Source: Oceanispirochaeta sp. (GTDB lineage: Bacteria > Spirochaetota > Spirochaetia > DSM-2461). Taken from it: 64,000 bases of DNA. The stretch covers positions 864,001 to 928,000 of the forward strand of contig CAXXOA010000001.1 in the NCBI GenBank assembly GCA_963666275.2, read 5' to 3'. The notes beneath the pieces were generated by a model, which was given only the letters and a program-made list of their open reading frames with translations, was not told the origin of the DNA and ran no database searches. This document shows positions 10,421-18,114 of this stretch, piece after piece. The translations under genes and the position numbers were made by a program. Within the stretch, counting starts at the first letter, position 1. Every line of letters begins with the position of its first letter.

Positions 10421-10450
10421 TTGTAATTTTTTTACTTCCTTGGTTAAAAT
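10421..10450 (+). promoter_or_regulatory. Putative sigma70 promoter of the mtmB-like/ECF operon
   Basis: TTGTAA-18 bp-TAAAAT downstream of an AT-rich tract. Confidence 0.5.
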
Positions 10451-10455
10451 CTAGC

Positions 10456-10674
10456 ATGTCTGACATCTTGCGGGACTGTCAGAAGAAATTCCATGTGCAG
10501 ACATTGAGGACGGGAAGCCTGTTCGTACCAAGAGTACCGGGGTCGCACTATACACTACAAAGATTTACCGGTTACGGGGTCTGGTGGCTGTTGCATGGAA
10601 GTTCCTTTATCTCAACCCACGACAGCAAACCTCTCTCTTCCGGTGAGTATTCAGTTGAAAACTGGAGGATGTGC
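10456..10674 (+). ncRNA. Candidate structured 5' leader / riboswitch-like element, class unknown
   Basis: Hairpin TCTGACA..TGTCAGA; long stem TTCCATGTGCAG/CTGTTGCATGGAA; anti-SD stem TCTTCCGGT (10636-44) pairing ACTGGAGGA (10661-69). Confidence 0.45.
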
Positions 10675-12042
10675 ATGGTAGAGAACTATCTGGAATTAAC
10701 AAAAAGAATACATCAGGGAGAAGCCCAGTCCAAAGAGGATTGGGACTTCCGTATCATTGAGACGGTTCAGTCTCTGGTGGAAAAATACAGCCTGAGCTGG
10801 AACCGGGAGGAGCTGTGCTCCGAAGACGATGATCTGGCCGACCGGGTGTTTCAGGCAGGAAGAGAACTGCTCCTGACAACCGGAGTCTACGCTCTTTCCG
10901 AGGGCAGAGTTCTGCTCCTGGGAGAAGAGGAAGTGGACAGGGCCATGAAAGGGATGAATAAAACCCTGGTTATGGGAGAAGGCAAAGACAGCTACTCACT
11001 GGCTCCCCGGAAGGTCTGCGATACCAGGCCGCCTGCTGTCTGGGCGGGAAACCCCGGTGTCCCCACACCGGAAAGGCTATTCAAAGCGACTGTAAAAAGC
11101 TGGGCCCGGGAGAGCGTGGTGGATCTGATCACCTGCGGATCTCTTGTGGATGTGGACGGCTATAAGGTCGAATCCGGAGAGGTGAGCGAACTGCTGGCTT
11201 CACGGCGGGAACTGGAGCTGCTGAAACAGGTCCGGGAAGAGGTAGGCCGACCCGGAATGGGAATGCTTGCCGCAGAGAGCAGTGTCACCGAAATCGGTGA
11301 CCTGGCTGCAACCCACCCGGATCTGCTGCGTCCCTGTGATTCCCATCTGGTAGCCATGTTCAATGAGCTTATGATTGACCGGGGGAATATGGTCCGGGCG
11401 GCCAACTCCCTTTTCTACGGTATGGCCAATGCCTCTCTGGCGACTGTTATGGTCGGGGGTCTCGCAGGAGATGCTCACGGTGCCGCCATTGCGCAGGTTG
11501 CCTCTTTTCTGGCGGCGAACATTATCTGTCTGGCCGATTATCATCTGTGCCATCCCATTCATATACAGCATGTGGCCACTTCCACCAGAGGATGCCTCTG
11601 GCTGGAGAGCATTGTCTGTCAGGCCTTTGCCAGGAACGCACCGGCTATCATTGTCTGCGATATCTATCCCAAGAGCGGGGCAGTGACAAAAGAGCTCCTT
11701 TATGAGGTGGCAGCCAATGCCCTGGCGGCCTCAGTCAGCGGGGGCCACCTGGAAGGGGTCGGTTCCGCTGATGGAAGCCTGCCTCACGGAACCGGTCTGG
11801 AAGTCAGGCTGATGGGAGAAGTCGGACATGCCGCTGCGGGACTCAGCCGCAGCAGGGCCAATGGGATCATTCTGGAACTCCTGAAAAAATATGAACATGT
11901 TTTTGATCTGCCCGGAGGAAATCCCGGACTTCCTTTCGATCAGGCTTACGACATGGATACCCTGACACCCTCCCCTGAGTGGGAAGCAATGTACAATTCC
12001 GTCAGAAAAGAACTTGTTTCTCTGGGTCTGCCCCTGAAGTAA
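10675..12042 (+). CDS. MtmB-family (monomethylamine:corrinoid methyltransferase-like) protein without pyrrolysine
   Basis: 455 aa from the GGAGG-preceded ATG at 10675. MtmB-like motifs GRPGMG, DSHLVAMFNELMID, TGLEVRLMGEVGHAAAG and YDMDTLTP. No in-frame amber codon. Confidence 0.85.
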   Translation: MVENYLELTKRIHQGEAQSKEDWDFRIIETVQSLVEKYSLSWNREELCSEDDDLADRVFQAGRELLLTTGVYALSEGRVLLLGEEEVDRAMKGMNKTLVMGEGKDSYSLAPRKVCDTRPPAVWAGNPGVPTPERLFKATVKSWARESVVDLITCGSLVDVDGYKVESGEVSELLASRRELELLKQVREEVGRPGMGMLAAESSVTEIGDLAATHPDLLRPCDSHLVAMFNELMIDRGNMVRAANSLFYGMANASLATVMVGGLAGDAHGAAIAQVASFLAANIICLADYHLCHPIHIQHVATSTRGCLWLESIVCQAFARNAPAIIVCDIYPKSGAVTKELLYEVAANALAASVSGGHLEGVGSADGSLPHGTGLEVRLMGEVGHAAAGLSRSRANGIILELLKKYEHVFDLPGGNPGLPFDQAYDMDTLTPSPEWEAMYNSVRKELVSLGLPLK

Positions 12043-12097: not shown

Positions 12098-12736
12098 ATG
12101 GTTGTCTACACGATTTTCAATGTGGCGGTAGTTATCGTCCTCGGTCTGGTTGCCCGTTTCACCAGTAAAAATGTGGTGGAAAAAGAGAGTAAGGGATACA
12201 CAACCCAGAATCTGGTCATTGTGGCCGTACTGGCTGCGATCGCCGGTGTTATCAACACAGGGATGGGAAATATCTGGTATCTGGCCAACACCTCTCTGGG
12301 ACCTCTGGGGGGAGCCCTGATTCAGGGGATGTTCATGTGGGCCTATATTCTGGCGGCTTTTATGGTAAGAAAACCCGGCGTGGCTCTGGCTTTCGGTATT
12401 ATCGAGTCGGCTACCGAGGTTATTCTGGGAAATGCCGCGGGAATCGGAACTCTCGGATGGGGAATCTCCCAGGGACTGGCCATTGAAGCCATTCTTCTTA
12501 TCTGCTCCTATAGACGTTTCGGTCTGGTTGCGGCGCTGATGGCGGGTATCGCCTCCTCACAGTTCGGTACTCTCTGGAGTTCCGTCTTCTACGGATGGGA
12601 TCCCTCCTATTCAAAGGACGTCTGGATGGCCGTTCCCATCAACATGATCTCCGGTGCCGTTTTCAGCGGTGGTCTGGGATACTTCCTGGCAACGAAAATT
12701 GCCAGAACAGGCCTGGTCCGTTCGTCCAGAGCCTAA
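12098..12736 (+). CDS. ECF transporter S component, YkoE-like
   Basis: Multi-TM protein with RKPGVAL..E and QGLAIEA..YRRF motifs; AGGAG RBS before the ATG at 12098. Confidence 0.8.
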   Translation: MVVYTIFNVAVVIVLGLVARFTSKNVVEKESKGYTTQNLVIVAVLAAIAGVINTGMGNIWYLANTSLGPLGGALIQGMFMWAYILAAFMVRKPGVALAFGIIESATEVILGNAAGIGTLGWGISQGLAIEAILLICSYRRFGLVAALMAGIASSQFGTLWSSVFYGWDPSYSKDVWMAVPINMISGAVFSGGLGYFLATKIARTGLVRSSRA

Positions 12737-12785: not shown

Positions 12786-14525
12786 ATGCAGAATATGTCT
12801 GATATAGTTCAGCTGAAAAATGTTTCATTTCGATTTCAGGATAAAGAAAATCCTGTTCTGAAGGATCTTACTTTCTCCCTGAAAAAAGGATCCTTCAATA
12901 TCCTTGTCGGTCCCGGCGGGAGCGGAAAATCCACTCTCTGCAAGGTTCTGGACGGCCGGATCCCCCATCTCATTCCCGGGACTCTGGAGGGGCAGGTCCT
13001 TCTGGAGGGACGATCCACATCAGAAATCGCAATGAAAGATATTTCCTGCTGTGTGGGGTCAGTGTTTCAGGACCCCGAAACCATGTTTGCCACCCTGTCC
13101 GTGGAAGATGAGATCGCCTTCGGGCCGGAAAATCTTCTCCATCATAGGGATAAGATTCTCAGGGATGTGGATGAACTGCTTGAAATGACAGGAATCGGTC
13201 TTTACAGGCACAATCTTGTATGGAATCTGTCGGGTGGTCAGATCCAGAAACTGGGACTCGCAGCGGTTCTGGCCATGGAGCCCCGGCTGATTATTCTGGA
13301 TGAACCCACAGCCAACCTGGACCCGGCTGCTACCCGGCAGGTGCATGAGCTGATCCTGACTCTGAGGGAGAAGGGCATGACAGTGCTTCTTGTGACCAGA
13401 GAACTGGATGATTTTATGGCAGAAGCCGACAGTGTGCTTGTTCTCAGAGAAGGATCTCTTGCTTATCAGGATGAGCCCTACAGCCTTCTGAAAGAGCATG
13501 GCTGTGATATGGAGAGCCTGGGGATCTGGCTGCCTGAAACTGTAGAGATCGGTCTGGGGCTCCTGAGGACAAACCATCCTCTTGAAAGGATCCCCATTAC
13601 CGTGGATGAAACTATTGCGCTTCTGGATTCTCTGAATCTCTGTCCTCCCGGTACGGAACTCACAGGACGGCCGGATGCAGAGACAAGCTCAGAGTCCGCC
13701 CTGATCCGGGGCCGTAACATCAAGTTCAGCTACGGAGGCGGACTGTATGCATTAAAGGGGATCGACCTTGAAATCCGGGAAGGAGAGATGCTTGCCATTG
13801 TGGGAAGAAACGGAGCCGGCAAGAGTACCATGGCCAGACTGCTTATCGGATTAAACAAGTGCCGGGAAGGGGAACTGACCCTTTTCGGCAAAGCTTCGGA
13901 GAAATGGAAAGTTCCCGATCTTGCCAATCATATCTCTCTGGTTTTTCAGAATCCGGAACACCAGTTTCTTACGGATACTGTTGCCGAAGAGATCGAATAC
14001 AGTCTCCAGTCCCAGGTGGTATTCGACACAGAGGAAATCTCCACCCGGAGAGATGAAATACTGGAAATGCTGAATCTTCAGAATGAGAAAGACAGTCATC
14101 CCTTTGCCCTGAGTGCTGGGAATAAACGGAGACTGGGGGTTGCTACCATGCTCGTGGGCGACCCCGGGGTTCTGATCGTGGATGAACCTACCTACGGGCA
14201 GGACAAGGAGATGACAAGCACCCTTATGAAGCTCATGACAGATATCCGGGCCAGAGGGATCGCGGTAGTCATGATCAGTCATGATATGCGGCTGGTTGCG
14301 GAATATGCCGACAGGGTCGTGGTTTTCAGCGAAGGAAAAAAGCATTTTGACGGATTACCCACGGAGCTTTTCAGTAAATCGGATATTCTCGACAAGGCCA
14401 GCCTCCAGCCAACCCTGCTGTTTCAGATCCTTCAGAAACTGTCCCGAAAAGGGGTCCTCTGTTCCGGAAATATCCCCGGCACCGATGCTCTTCTTAAAAT
14501 GCTCGTAGATCCGGTGGAGGTTTGA
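12786..14525 (+). CDS. ECF transporter duplicated ATPase, YkoD-like
   Basis: Two Walker A motifs (GPGGSGKS, GRNGAGKS), LSGGQ/LSAGN signatures and two DEPT motifs. Confidence 0.92.
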   Translation: MQNMSDIVQLKNVSFRFQDKENPVLKDLTFSLKKGSFNILVGPGGSGKSTLCKVLDGRIPHLIPGTLEGQVLLEGRSTSEIAMKDISCCVGSVFQDPETMFATLSVEDEIAFGPENLLHHRDKILRDVDELLEMTGIGLYRHNLVWNLSGGQIQKLGLAAVLAMEPRLIILDEPTANLDPAATRQVHELILTLREKGMTVLLVTRELDDFMAEADSVLVLREGSLAYQDEPYSLLKEHGCDMESLGIWLPETVEIGLGLLRTNHPLERIPITVDETIALLDSLNLCPPGTELTGRPDAETSSESALIRGRNIKFSYGGGLYALKGIDLEIREGEMLAIVGRNGAGKSTMARLLIGLNKCREGELTLFGKASEKWKVPDLANHISLVFQNPEHQFLTDTVAEEIEYSLQSQVVFDTEEISTRRDEILEMLNLQNEKDSHPFALSAGNKRRLGVATMLVGDPGVLIVDEPTYGQDKEMTSTLMKLMTDIRARGIAVVMISHDMRLVAEYADRVVVFSEGKKHFDGLPTELFSKSDILDKASLQPTLLFQILQKLSRKGVLCSGNIPGTDALLKMLVDPVEV

Positions 14526-14526
14526 T

Positions 14527-15303
14527 ATGGCTGAAAATTTTCTGAGTTTCAAAGAGAGACGTTCCTATCTCAACCGGGTTTATCCTCTTGTAAAACTAAT
14601 CTGGGTGTTCTGCGTGGCCGTAGGACTTTTTCTATTTAAAAGTTCTCTCCCCGGGGCGGTTATGTTCATATATATTCTGTTTCTGGCCCTGGCGGGAGGA
14701 AAAATCTCACTCCGGGAGATCCTGAGAAGCGGGATCGTGGTTTTCGGACTGGGGTTTCTTCTGATGCTGTTCCATTTTTTCATCGATCCCGGTCAGGTGG
14801 TCTGGTCTCTGGGATTCCTCACAGTTACCGATACGGGACTTCTCCAGGGGCCTGTCTTCTTTTTCCGGCTTTCTGTCATTGTTCTTGCCAGTTTCATACT
14901 GATCTGGTCCACTGATACCCGGGACCTGATGACCTCTCTTGTAAAGGCGGGTATGCCCTACAGATACGCCTATACGATCTTTCTGGCCCTGAGATTTCTA
15001 CCACTGATACAGAAAGAGGTGGAGTCCGTGAAAGCGGCCCATGCCATAAGAGGAAAAGCCGGGGGATCCAATATGGCTCACCGTTTCAAGCTATGGCAGA
15101 GGTATGTATTCACCATCCTGATCAACGGGATTCGCAAGGCCGAATCCACCGCAGATGCTCTGGAATGCCGGGCTTTCGGCTTCAGTGATAAAAGAACCTA
15201 TGTTAAGGATGTAAATTTCAGGAAACGGGATCTGATCCTGCTGCTGTTTACCCTGCTGCTTGAGATTCTTCTGGTCCTTTTAGACCGGGGGATAATCCTG
15301 TAA
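14527..15303 (+). CDS. ECF transporter T component (CbiQ/EcfT family)
   Basis: ALRFLPLI plus the two conserved Arg motifs AHAIRG and ALECRAF. Confidence 0.9.
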   Translation: MAENFLSFKERRSYLNRVYPLVKLIWVFCVAVGLFLFKSSLPGAVMFIYILFLALAGGKISLREILRSGIVVFGLGFLLMLFHFFIDPGQVVWSLGFLTVTDTGLLQGPVFFFRLSVIVLASFILIWSTDTRDLMTSLVKAGMPYRYAYTIFLALRFLPLIQKEVESVKAAHAIRGKAGGSNMAHRFKLWQRYVFTILINGIRKAESTADALECRAFGFSDKRTYVKDVNFRKRDLILLLFTLLLEILLVLLDRGIIL

Positions 15304-16858: not shown

Positions 16859-17578
16859 ATGGGGATTAAAACGGCCATCATTGCTGATGATTTTACAGGC
16901 GCCGGAGACTCGAGTATCTATTTCTCACTCCGGGGGTACGGACGGACCATGAGCAATATCCTCATAACAGGCGAAACCGGAACATGAAAGGAACTTCTGG
17001 CCCAGAGCATTCATAATGCCAGTCCTGTCAGAGAAGGCCATTTTGTAGTTGTCAACTGCAGCGCCCTGTCGGCTACTCCCCTGGAAAGCGAACTTTTCGG
17101 CTATGTGGGAGGCTCTTTTACAGAGGCTTCGAAAGGAGGAAAAACCGGCTTTTTTGAACTGGCCCATCAGGGGACCATCTTTCTGGATGAGATCATTCCT
17201 CTTTTTAAATATTTCGTATTTGCCATTGCCCGCAGATGGAAGCAGCTGGAGACTAAAATTACCCTGTCAAGAGAGTTCGAAACGGCCCTGCTGCGTTACT
17301 CCTGGCCGGGAAACGTGAGAGAGCTTGAAAACCTTGTGGAAAAATACATGACCCTCCTGCAGATCGACACAAAAGAGAATGTGGAGAATCTCCTGAAGGA
17401 AAAACTGAGAGAGACGGATAATTCCTGTGAGGATATTCTCTGGGAAGGGGCTCTCAAGGAGATCGAATCCAGAATCATAACTGATGCTCTGGAGCAGGAA
17501 GATCATAATATCTCCTGGACTGCCGCCAGGCTGCAGATAGACAGAAATACTCTGAAGCGGAAACTTTCGGAGAACTAG
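16859..17578 (+). pseudogene. Chimeric relic: four-carbon sugar-acid kinase (DUF1537/DtnK-like) N-terminus fused in frame to a broken sigma54 activator
   Basis: MGIKTAIIADDFTGAGD runs into ILITGETGT*KE (TGA at 16985 inside Walker A), then ESELFGY..GSFTEA and FLDEI, an apparent deletion near 17194, WPGNVREL and a Fis-type HTH. Confidence 0.8.
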
Positions 17579-17664
17579 GCCTCTTTTTTATCTTCCTTTT
17601 GAAGCAATGGAGAATTTTACTCTGTAATATCTCTTAGAAAATGTTAAAATATAAGGGAGATATT

Positions 17665-18114
17665 ATGGGAGAACCTCAAGTGGACCAGAACCAATTAGAT
17701 CAAATTGGAGATTTTGTAAAAAGTCATCTTGGACAGTGGATACAGGAACAGAATATTTCTCTTTTTCCAGTAAGAGATAAGTCCCTTGATAAGGAACTTC
17801 TGGAAAGAATGATCCGGGTGGAAGAAGGTTTGAAAAATCAGATGGAACTGACCCGTCAGGGATTTGAAAATATGGAGAAACGTTTTATTGAACGTTTTGA
17901 AGCTGTTGATAAAAGGTTCGAGGCCGTGGATAAACGCTTCGAGGCCGTGGATAAGCACTTTGAGGCCGTGGATAAGCACTTTGAGGCCGTGGATAAAAGG
18001 TTTGAAGATATGCAGCACTATATGGACAAGCGTTTTAATGTTCAAACATGGATTATCAGTGCAGGTTTCGCCATGATGACAATACTGATGTCTCTCTATC
18101 GGTTCTTTGGTTAA
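17665..18114 (+). CDS. Coiled-coil heptad-repeat protein with C-terminal TM helix
   Basis: GGAG RBS; (K)RFEAVD repeats; hydrophobic C-terminus. An alternative start exists at 17641. Confidence 0.75.
   Translation: MGEPQVDQNQLDQIGDFVKSHLGQWIQEQNISLFPVRDKSLDKELLERMIRVEEGLKNQMELTRQGFENMEKRFIERFEAVDKRFEAVDKRFEAVDKHFEAVDKHFEAVDKRFEDMQHYMDKRFNVQTWIISAGFAMMTILMSLYRFFG
17893..18006 (+). repeat. 21-bp in-frame tandem repeat, 5 copies plus a partial copy
   Basis: Unit like cactttgaggccgtggataag, encoding (R/H)FEAVDK. Confidence 0.9.

Follow-up and report, generated by a model that had tools for sequence, protein, structure and literature searches.

The Purine riboswitch (RF00167) has conserved kissing loops, L2 and L3. 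The TPP riboswitch (RF00059) and an HMP-PP switch occur before ykoE-type ECF operons. Orphan riboswitch candidates have also been collected in GC-IGR surveys (PMC8632094, PMC11109978). Among the corrinoid methyltransferases, the reference structure is MtmB of Methanosarcina barkeri (PDB 1L2Q/1NTH), and the first function given to a pyrrolysine-free MtmB, according to PMC13044021, concerns tetramethylammonium and choline.

Here, we analyzed the leader of an operon that encodes a pyrrolysine-free MtmB-family protein followed by an ECF transporter, found in a 64,000-nucleotide stretch of an Oceanispirochaeta sp. genome (hereafter, the window; its genome is G000). From the sequence alone, this leader had been proposed to be a new riboswitch or attenuator. 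Our results suggest that it works like a translational riboswitch, yet it belongs to no Rfam family.

Organization of the mtmB leader

The promoter consensus in the window predicts an mRNA start site near 10456-57, and the start codon of mtmB lies at 10675 (Table 1). The orthologous leaders have comparable promoter-like hexamer pairs ahead of P1, with 6 nt between the end of the pair and P1 in L016, L020, and L124. An N-terminal extension of MtmB starting from an ATG at 10456 was rejected since it is not conserved among orthologs. Likewise, the reading frame continuous with mtmB is open over the core in only 1 of 14 orthologs, indicating that the core is not coding. A terminator scan of the window's leader found no intrinsic terminator, so that an attenuator in the transcriptional sense is unsupported. 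Elsewhere, the window carries an ORF of 157 aa with tandem seven-residue repeats (17641-18114) and an apparently truncated sigma-54-type activator fragment comprising the C-terminal part only (16925-17578).

Table 1. Features of the mtmB leader and operon (window coordinates)
Feature	Position	Strand	Basis or remark
Sigma-70-like promoter	10421..10450	+	-35 at 10421-26, -10 at 10445-50; consensus match only
Palindromic operator-like box	10453..10469 (core 10457-65)	.	purL-derived weight matrix, 17.8 bits
Degenerate second box copy	10477..10485	.	Sequence; forms the 5' hairpin with the first box; putative role
P1 5' strand	10487..10494	+	Pairs with 10595-10601; A-U/G-C switch between clades
Conserved core, putative aptamer	10495..10548	+	P2-P3-P4; alignment and covariance model R1
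P2	10495-10506 with 10538-10548	+	Core helix
J2/3	10507-10	+	
P3	10511-21	+	
J3/4	10522-24	+	
P4	10525-37	+	
P5, variable-sequence stem-loop	10553..10586	+	Single-sequence folds of orthologs; not alignable, hence no covariation count
J5/1 switching strand and P1 3' strand	10587..10601	+	J5/1 10587-94; P1 3' strand 10595-10601
Expression platform	10620..10669	+	Putative; linker 10620-26, anti-SD 10636-44, SD 10664-68
Pyrrolysine-free MtmB-family corrinoid methyltransferase, 455 aa	10675..12042	+	PF05369, E 7.6e-93
ECF S component, YkoE-like	12098..12736	+	PF09819; 5EDL, E 5.9e-16
ECF duplicated ATPase (A-A')	12786..14525	+	PF00005 twice
ECF T component	14527..15303	+	PF02361

Conservation and range of the motif

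A protein search of 101 related genomes identified mtmB orthologs of at least 70% identity in 13 of them, G000 included, and the same core was present in the leaders of all 13. With the addition of L110 and L124, the core alignment comprised 15 distinct leaders, in which 36 of 83 columns are invariant and a 17-nt run (10505-10521) is identical throughout. By comparison, the mtmB gene itself, aligned for 14 orthologs, has a single invariant position among its 110 four-fold sites (mean pairwise identity, 0.38) and no invariant run longer than 6 nt. The invariance of the core is thus far above that of the saturated synonymous sites of mtmB, indicating that the core is under strong selection. The core alone measures ~55 nt, and the motif reaches about 115 nt when P1 is counted. 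Folding of single sequences was less informative: neither the full 225-nt leader (z, -0.68), the 120-nt motif alone (z, -1.09), nor the SD hairpin region alone (z, +0.87) folded better than shuffles, the sole part to do so being the 5' inverted repeat (z, -2.83). Single-sequence evidence is therefore weak, and it is the orthologs that supply the proof.

The covariance model built from the motif (R1) finds one copy in G000 and gives strong matches (79-90 bits) in exactly the 13 genomes with a close ortholog. This coincidence is built into the comparison; what is informative is that none of the other 88 of the 101 related genomes gives a strong match. Two weak matches (about 22 bits) in relatives lack the core. 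A family-wide R1 scan returned the same genomes (12 of 38), and BLAST of the leader against its own genome matched only itself. Searching the genome collection with an exact pattern, which can miss diverged variants of the motif, retrieved 65 stretches. Seven fit R1 and are all spirochaete records upstream of mtmB; the remaining 58 do not fit the model and were discarded as chance matches. A phylum-level pattern scan of 401 genomes allowing up to 3 mismatches gave 24 matches in 23 genomes, compared to 8 for the reversed control. All 23 of those found outside G000 were rejected, as they scored at most 21.5 bits with R1 and the best one lies inside a gene resembling D-Ala-D-Ala ligase (by eye). 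Viral contigs contained 20 exact matches to the 17-mer, which were also dismissed because the best reached 23.8 bits against about 80 for true members. Of 37 metagenome loci that encode the enzyme, the motif was present in 4 (71-73% identity), compared with none of the 26 more distant homologs (53-69%) having at least 200 nt of upstream sequence; the other 7 loci are too short upstream. Named homologs of mtmB at 71-72% identity are from Oceanispirochaeta, and every true instance of the motif lies directly upstream of the same mtmB ortholog.

Two other loci (L137 and L138) show the same pairing of mtmB with a YkoE-like ECF transporter (about 60% identity) without the RNA motif. In addition, the leader of a distant MtmB paralog (about 30%) contains another conserved motif, which has a short hairpin, in four of the 101 relatives (L198 to L201: G043:C108:40978, G008:C2:2826081, G082:C1:4307075, and G046:C1:526650). 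No Rfam family matched these four loci at gathering level, and this second motif is possibly another orphan regulatory RNA.

Secondary structure and covariation

RNAalifold predicted a P2-P3-P4 three-way junction from the ortholog alignment. In the 15-row alignment, 97.8% of the 270 cells assigned to pairs are paired, compared to 93.7% in shuffles (none of 500 reached the real value) and 31-43% in slid controls. Two-sided changes occur in 5 of the 18 core pairs, and parsimony on the protein tree places about 5 independent two-sided changes in the core, although the relatedness of the ~15 leaders inflates such counts. The compensatory changes, which represent few independent events, are found in helices P1, P2, and P4, while P3 never varies and consequently receives no support from covariation. 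Pair 20-73 fails in 4 of 15 leaders, and both this pair and pair 45-66 are partly broken. In 15/15 leaders, about 100-116 nt are enclosed by an outer P1 of 6-9 pairs, inside which lies P5, a hairpin of free sequence; the core is nested within an outer P1/P5 junction.

That the leader is conserved and covaries among orthologs, as the sequence-only reading would require, was borne out by the 15 leaders and their changes in P1, P2, and P4. Of its two small hairpins, the second is P4 and covaries; the first keeps its inner 4 pairs, but the outer three fail in 6 of the 15 leaders. The long stem it described competes with the junction core. That core went unnoticed because the long stem uses the same 5' strand as P2, so that P3, P4, and P1 were seen and P2 was missed. 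Altogether, it is very probable that the leader holds a real conserved structured RNA at about 10487-10601.

Comparison with known RNA families

No Rfam 15 model reached its gathering threshold in the window. At E<=10, no riboswitch or other cis-regulatory leader family matched over the motif in the window, and nothing matched at the motif in the 13 orthologous loci. Between 10200 and 10900, four chance-level matches were obtained, one of which, a miRNA model scoring 17 bits against a cutoff of 49, overlaps the 3' end of the motif. The Rfam models for TPP, SAM-I, cobalamin, THF, ZTP, lysine, T-box, and PyrR were not matched at the motif, whereas the positive control recovered RF00167 in 7 of 10 purL loci. 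A match to a known Rfam class, which would have refuted the sequence-only reading, was thus not obtained. The hammerhead ribozyme, whose core consists of CUGANGA followed by GAAA after stem II, was considered and rejected: the first-position C occurs in only 2 of 15 leaders, the site corresponding to GAAA is a varying G-W-W-C, and no Rfam match was found.

A palindromic box shared with the purL operon

The 5' hairpin had been taken for part of the RNA structure. However, its first arm is itself palindromic, and a hairpin arises automatically wherever a palindrome occurs in two inverted copies, for which reason we read the 5' part of the leader as DNA operators. The same box precedes the purL operon in all 10 genus genomes with a purL match (purL encodes FGAM synthase; the downstream pur genes were read by eye), and in 7 of these 10 leaders the box is followed by the Rfam Purine riboswitch. 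No RF00167 match was obtained in the three other purL leaders (L183, L184, and L189), nor anywhere in the G000 genome, whose own purL leader is L183 (G000:C1:1905700-1906110). When the 4459 upstream regions of G000 were scanned with a weight matrix derived from purL sites only, the window's box came 6th among the distinct sites. Of the 16 leader rows examined (two rows being the same sequence), 10 have a box near the promoter. The box scores at least 10 bits in 8/8 leaders of genus g1 and below 10 in the 7/7 others; tandem boxes were also seen in L012, L013, L019, and L189. Other high-scoring boxes precede genes for a binding protein beside adenine deaminase, an NCS2 uracil-type permease, an AGCS symporter, and an 8-oxoguanine deaminase, as well as genes read by eye as purC, gcvT, and lplA. 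Plain genome-wide counts of the short box gave no intergenic excess (22 sites, several of them in a repeated element); the case is made by the box footprint and the set of genes. Judging from these sequence comparisons, what was read as a 5' hairpin probably represents two DNA operator boxes that the leader has in common with the purL operon.

The apparent purine/one-carbon regulon marked by the box (G000:C1:1906052 and L184 to L192) also includes nucleoside and nucleobase transporters. A Rex-like protein with a box at its start (L196, G000:C2:374914-375594), which has no Pfam match, is a candidate regulator of the box. The box resembles FadR-type operators, and G000 has 30 matches to the GntR domain.

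The methyltransferase and its genomic context

MtmB of the window matches PF05369 with 312 bits (cutoff, 25) and aligns over its full length to 1L2Q, with Leu198 at the pyrrolysine position and no in-frame stop. A true monomethylamine methyltransferase, with pyrrolysine encoded by an in-frame amber codon, was rejected on these grounds. In 121/121 homologs, leucine occupies the pyrrolysine position as well as the one aligned with Glu229. We infer that a ring-carbon methylamino group, as in N6-methyladenine, may mimic the methylamine-pyrrolysine adduct. PMC13044021 keeps the mimic idea and describes other pyrrolysine-free MtmB proteins, apart from the MtqB branch, as being of unknown function. 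There is no corrinoid gene in the mtmB operon. G000 encodes a corrinoid protein, a RACo activator, and an adenine deaminase. The corrinoid protein, the only non-MetH B12-binding_2 match in G000, stands alone in a cluster with a PocR-AraC regulator and a RACo activator (L197, G000:C2:2265534-2269705).

In the genomes G003 and G008, a 509-aa permease takes the place of the ECF genes behind the motif and mtmB, and a query with the S component, run without a positive control, had no match in either genome. The motif therefore follows the methyltransferase and not the ECF transporter, to which it had originally been linked. The G003 permease is 55% identical to that of L133, a locus where mtmB is divergent from an adjoining adenine deaminase. 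The 509-aa permease family has no Pfam match, PF00860 included; by language-model features, the L133 permease homolog is Xan_ur_permease-like, with a 0.90 match to PF00860 clusters. A predicted structure for the family is of mediocre quality (pLDDT, 63.7) and shows a 7+7 fold common to SLC26/SLC4. Foldseek with this model gave the best E-values for SLC26 anion transporters and the best TM-score (0.54) for the xanthine transporter UapA. Other mtmB homologs lie beside an adenine-deaminase-like gene (L130, below cutoff), a nucleoside phosphorylase-like gene (L132), and a purF-like gene (L128). ABC permeases near further homologs, which we take to be of the nucleoside type, have as their best NCBIfam match a "putative B6" model, below its cutoff. 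The sole solved relative of the S component is the thiamine/HMP protein YkoE. Given that the context points to purines, thiamine/HMP, methylamines, and corrinoids, which are among the compounds listed for probing in the sequence-only reading, are not our first choice of ligand.

Putative expression platform and polarity

The strings that had been quoted as pairing partners around the SD were found at 10636-44, 10661-69, 10563-71, and 10640-48, as described, and the SD-occluding and SD-freeing pairings predicted for G000 are those that the sequence-only reading named. Segment 10563-71 lies within P5 and can pair with the anti-SD segment. According to the folding model, opening the SD in the 15 leaders costs a mean of 9.1 kcal/mol when only the linker is free and 4.9 kcal/mol when P5 and the P1 3' strand are also free, the cost being lower in 14 of 15 leaders, in agreement with the alternative folds initially proposed. 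With shuffled upstream sequences, the mean was 7.9 kcal/mol; a lower cost was again seen for 14 of the 15 real leaders, with 7 of the 15 reaching p<=0.05 singly. The anti-SD hairpin was better than with shuffled linkers in 12 of 15 leaders, although with p<=0.05 in only 2. The J5/1 strand has two possible partners, either the P2 5' strand, with which it forms the long stem of the sequence-only reading, or the linker at 10620-26. Extension of P1 into the P2 5' strand beat shuffled J5/1 in 13 of 15 leaders (-7.5 versus -5.4) with none of the 15 singly at p<0.05, while the J5/1-linker pairing passed in 1 of 15. This competition for P2 suggests that J5/1 would be released, and the SD exposed, by a ligand that keeps P2 in place.

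The direction of the predicted switch depends on how the bound fold is modeled. When P2 received a bonus of 6 kcal/mol with a span limit of 140 nt, SD opening was eased in 9 of 15 leaders and hindered in 1. The same bonus without the span limit gave 8 versus 5, and there was no trend if P1 shared it. Enforcing P1 together with the core raised the cost of opening the RBS above that for the core alone in 13 of 15 leaders, the result expected of an OFF switch. Consequently, polarity hinges on whether P1 belongs to the bound fold, and these models incline us slightly toward ON. The P1 5' strand was also considered as a dedicated anti-SD element but was rejected, since it beat 400 background RBS regions in only 1 of 15 leaders.

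Proposed mechanism and alternatives

We consider it fairly likely, from sequence comparisons, that the motif is a small-molecule riboswitch of some kind. More tentatively, and with somewhat less than an even chance, it may be an undescribed translational riboswitch turned ON by an N-methylated purine, e.g., N6-methyladenine or its nucleoside. Behind this proposal stand the directly computed conservation, the covariation of P1, P2, and P4, the position in the leader, the common box, and the transporter swap; the substrate of the enzyme and the purine type of the ligand would follow from genomic context. The P2-P3-P4 core would be transcribed first. If the ligand is absent, J5/1 would extend P1 into the P2 5' strand and break the core, leaving the anti-SD segment free to cover the SD (OFF). 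If the ligand is bound, P2 would hold, J5/1 and the P5 region would pair with the linker and the anti-SD segment, and the SD would open (ON). The upstream DNA operator, common to the purine biosynthesis operon, may act as a second gate, and with two such gates production of the salvage enzyme would require both a shortage of purines and the presence of a methylated purine. The N-methyl group would then be transferred by the enzyme to the stand-alone corrinoid protein, leaving the base to be salvaged. The fullest form of this proposal, a methylated-nucleobase riboswitch acting as an AND gate with the purine-regulon operator to control an oxygen-free, corrinoid-dependent purine demethylase and either importer, is more doubtful. 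There, N6-methyladenine released by DNA or RNA turnover would be an example of the ligand, and the ECF S component would be an importer with a new specificity for the methylated purine.

The motif could instead be the structured target of a regulatory RNA-binding protein comparable to PyrR, TRAP, or CsrA; the protein would sense any ligand and act on the same expression platform. The conserved part is small and centered on one purine-rich invariant run with GGA words, its range is narrow (essentially one family plus two outliers), and the alternative folds would fit control by a protein equally well. Nevertheless, we regard this as rather unlikely, since no gene for an RNA-binding regulator adjoins the operon in the loci inspected, the Rfam PyrR model was not matched, and the invariant nucleotides lie on both strands of a multi-helix junction, as is typical of ligand pockets.

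Unlikely too is an OFF riboswitch responding to a purine end product (adenine, hypoxanthine, or a purine nucleotide), in which P1 would stack on P2 and the anti-SD segment would close on the SD. Although P1 covaries, enforcing it with the core made the RBS costlier to open in 13 of 15 leaders, and genes for uptake and salvage are usually governed by feedback OFF switches, the extension of P1 that competes with P2 in 13 of 15 leaders would have no use in such a device. Feedback would also be redundant in a genus that has canonical purine riboswitches, at a locus that already carries the purine-regulon box.

We find it improbable that the ligand is a non-purine, i.e., SAM or another methyl/one-carbon signal (with the methyl group passing to methionine or folate), a compound related to thiamine/HMP, or a methylated amine. 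The motif persists where a nucleobase-permease-like protein replaces the ECF transporter, the wider enzyme clade adjoins adenine deaminase and nucleoside phosphorylase-like genes, and the SAM, TPP, cobalamin, and THF models were not matched. In favor of a non-purine ligand are the YkoE-like S component in the operon and the presence of the box before the AGCS symporter, gcvT, and lplA (the last two by eye), which are glycine/one-carbon genes. So is the precedent of the only characterized pyrrolysine-free MtmB, which uses tetramethylammonium and choline (PMC13044021).

Finally, the structure might be conserved without acting as a switch, whether as a 5' stability element or as a processed small RNA, with the alternative folds being incidental. 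This reading would agree with single-sequence folding that does not exceed shuffles and with per-leader p-values that are mostly not significant for the switching helices. It is very improbable because the cross-leader tests agree in direction (14/15 and 13/15), a stability hairpin would not need 17 invariant nucleotides, and the window has no terminator behind the motif.

New riboswitch classes are rare, and our literature search gave no natural one for a methylated nucleobase. The motif that we propose to be switched by an N-methylated purine is short enough for direct testing. Its ligand would name the substrate of a large pyrrolysine-free MtmB clade (1091 proteins at E<=1e-100) and also that of a YkoE-like ECF subfamily that would be annotated for thiamine or cobalt transport. 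Even if the motif is bound by a protein, the analysis has exposed an apparent purine regulon in these spirochaetes. The narrow range of the motif limits its general impact.

Relation to described systems

The enzyme belongs to the PF05369 fold family and can be aligned over its full length with M. barkeri MtmB, but it differs from the latter in being bacterial, in its Leu at the pyrrolysine position, and in its nucleobase-type neighbors. MtqB of Methanococcoides methylutens Q3c, to which the window's enzyme is related by family, shows that pyrrolysine-free members are active demethylases (PMC13044021).

As for the RNA, the motif shares with the TPP riboswitch or HMP-PP switch of ykoE-type ECF operons its place in the leader of an operon with a YkoE-like S component and a UGAG word near a junction. 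In contrast to these switches, it has no Rfam match, the pyrophosphate-helix consensus is not seen, and the motif persists without the ECF transporter. With the Purine riboswitch it has in common a three-way-junction core in a leader under apparent purine control, and the Purine riboswitch likewise follows the same operator box before purL in this genus. However, the RF00167 model is not matched here, the junction sequences differ, and the core of our motif is nested in an outer P1/P5 junction. In addition, since the P4 loop is free in length and sequence, a conserved kissing loop is not possible in the motif. Searches of passages in the main texts of PMC8632094 and PMC11109978 and of one supplement file of the former gave no ECF- or MtmB-linked motif, and searches of the open literature gave no match for the motif sequence or for an MtmB-linked motif. 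The motif is similar to the orphan riboswitch candidates of those GC-IGR surveys in its conserved structure, its 5' position, its putative expression platform, and its consistent gene link (PMC8632094, PMC11109978).
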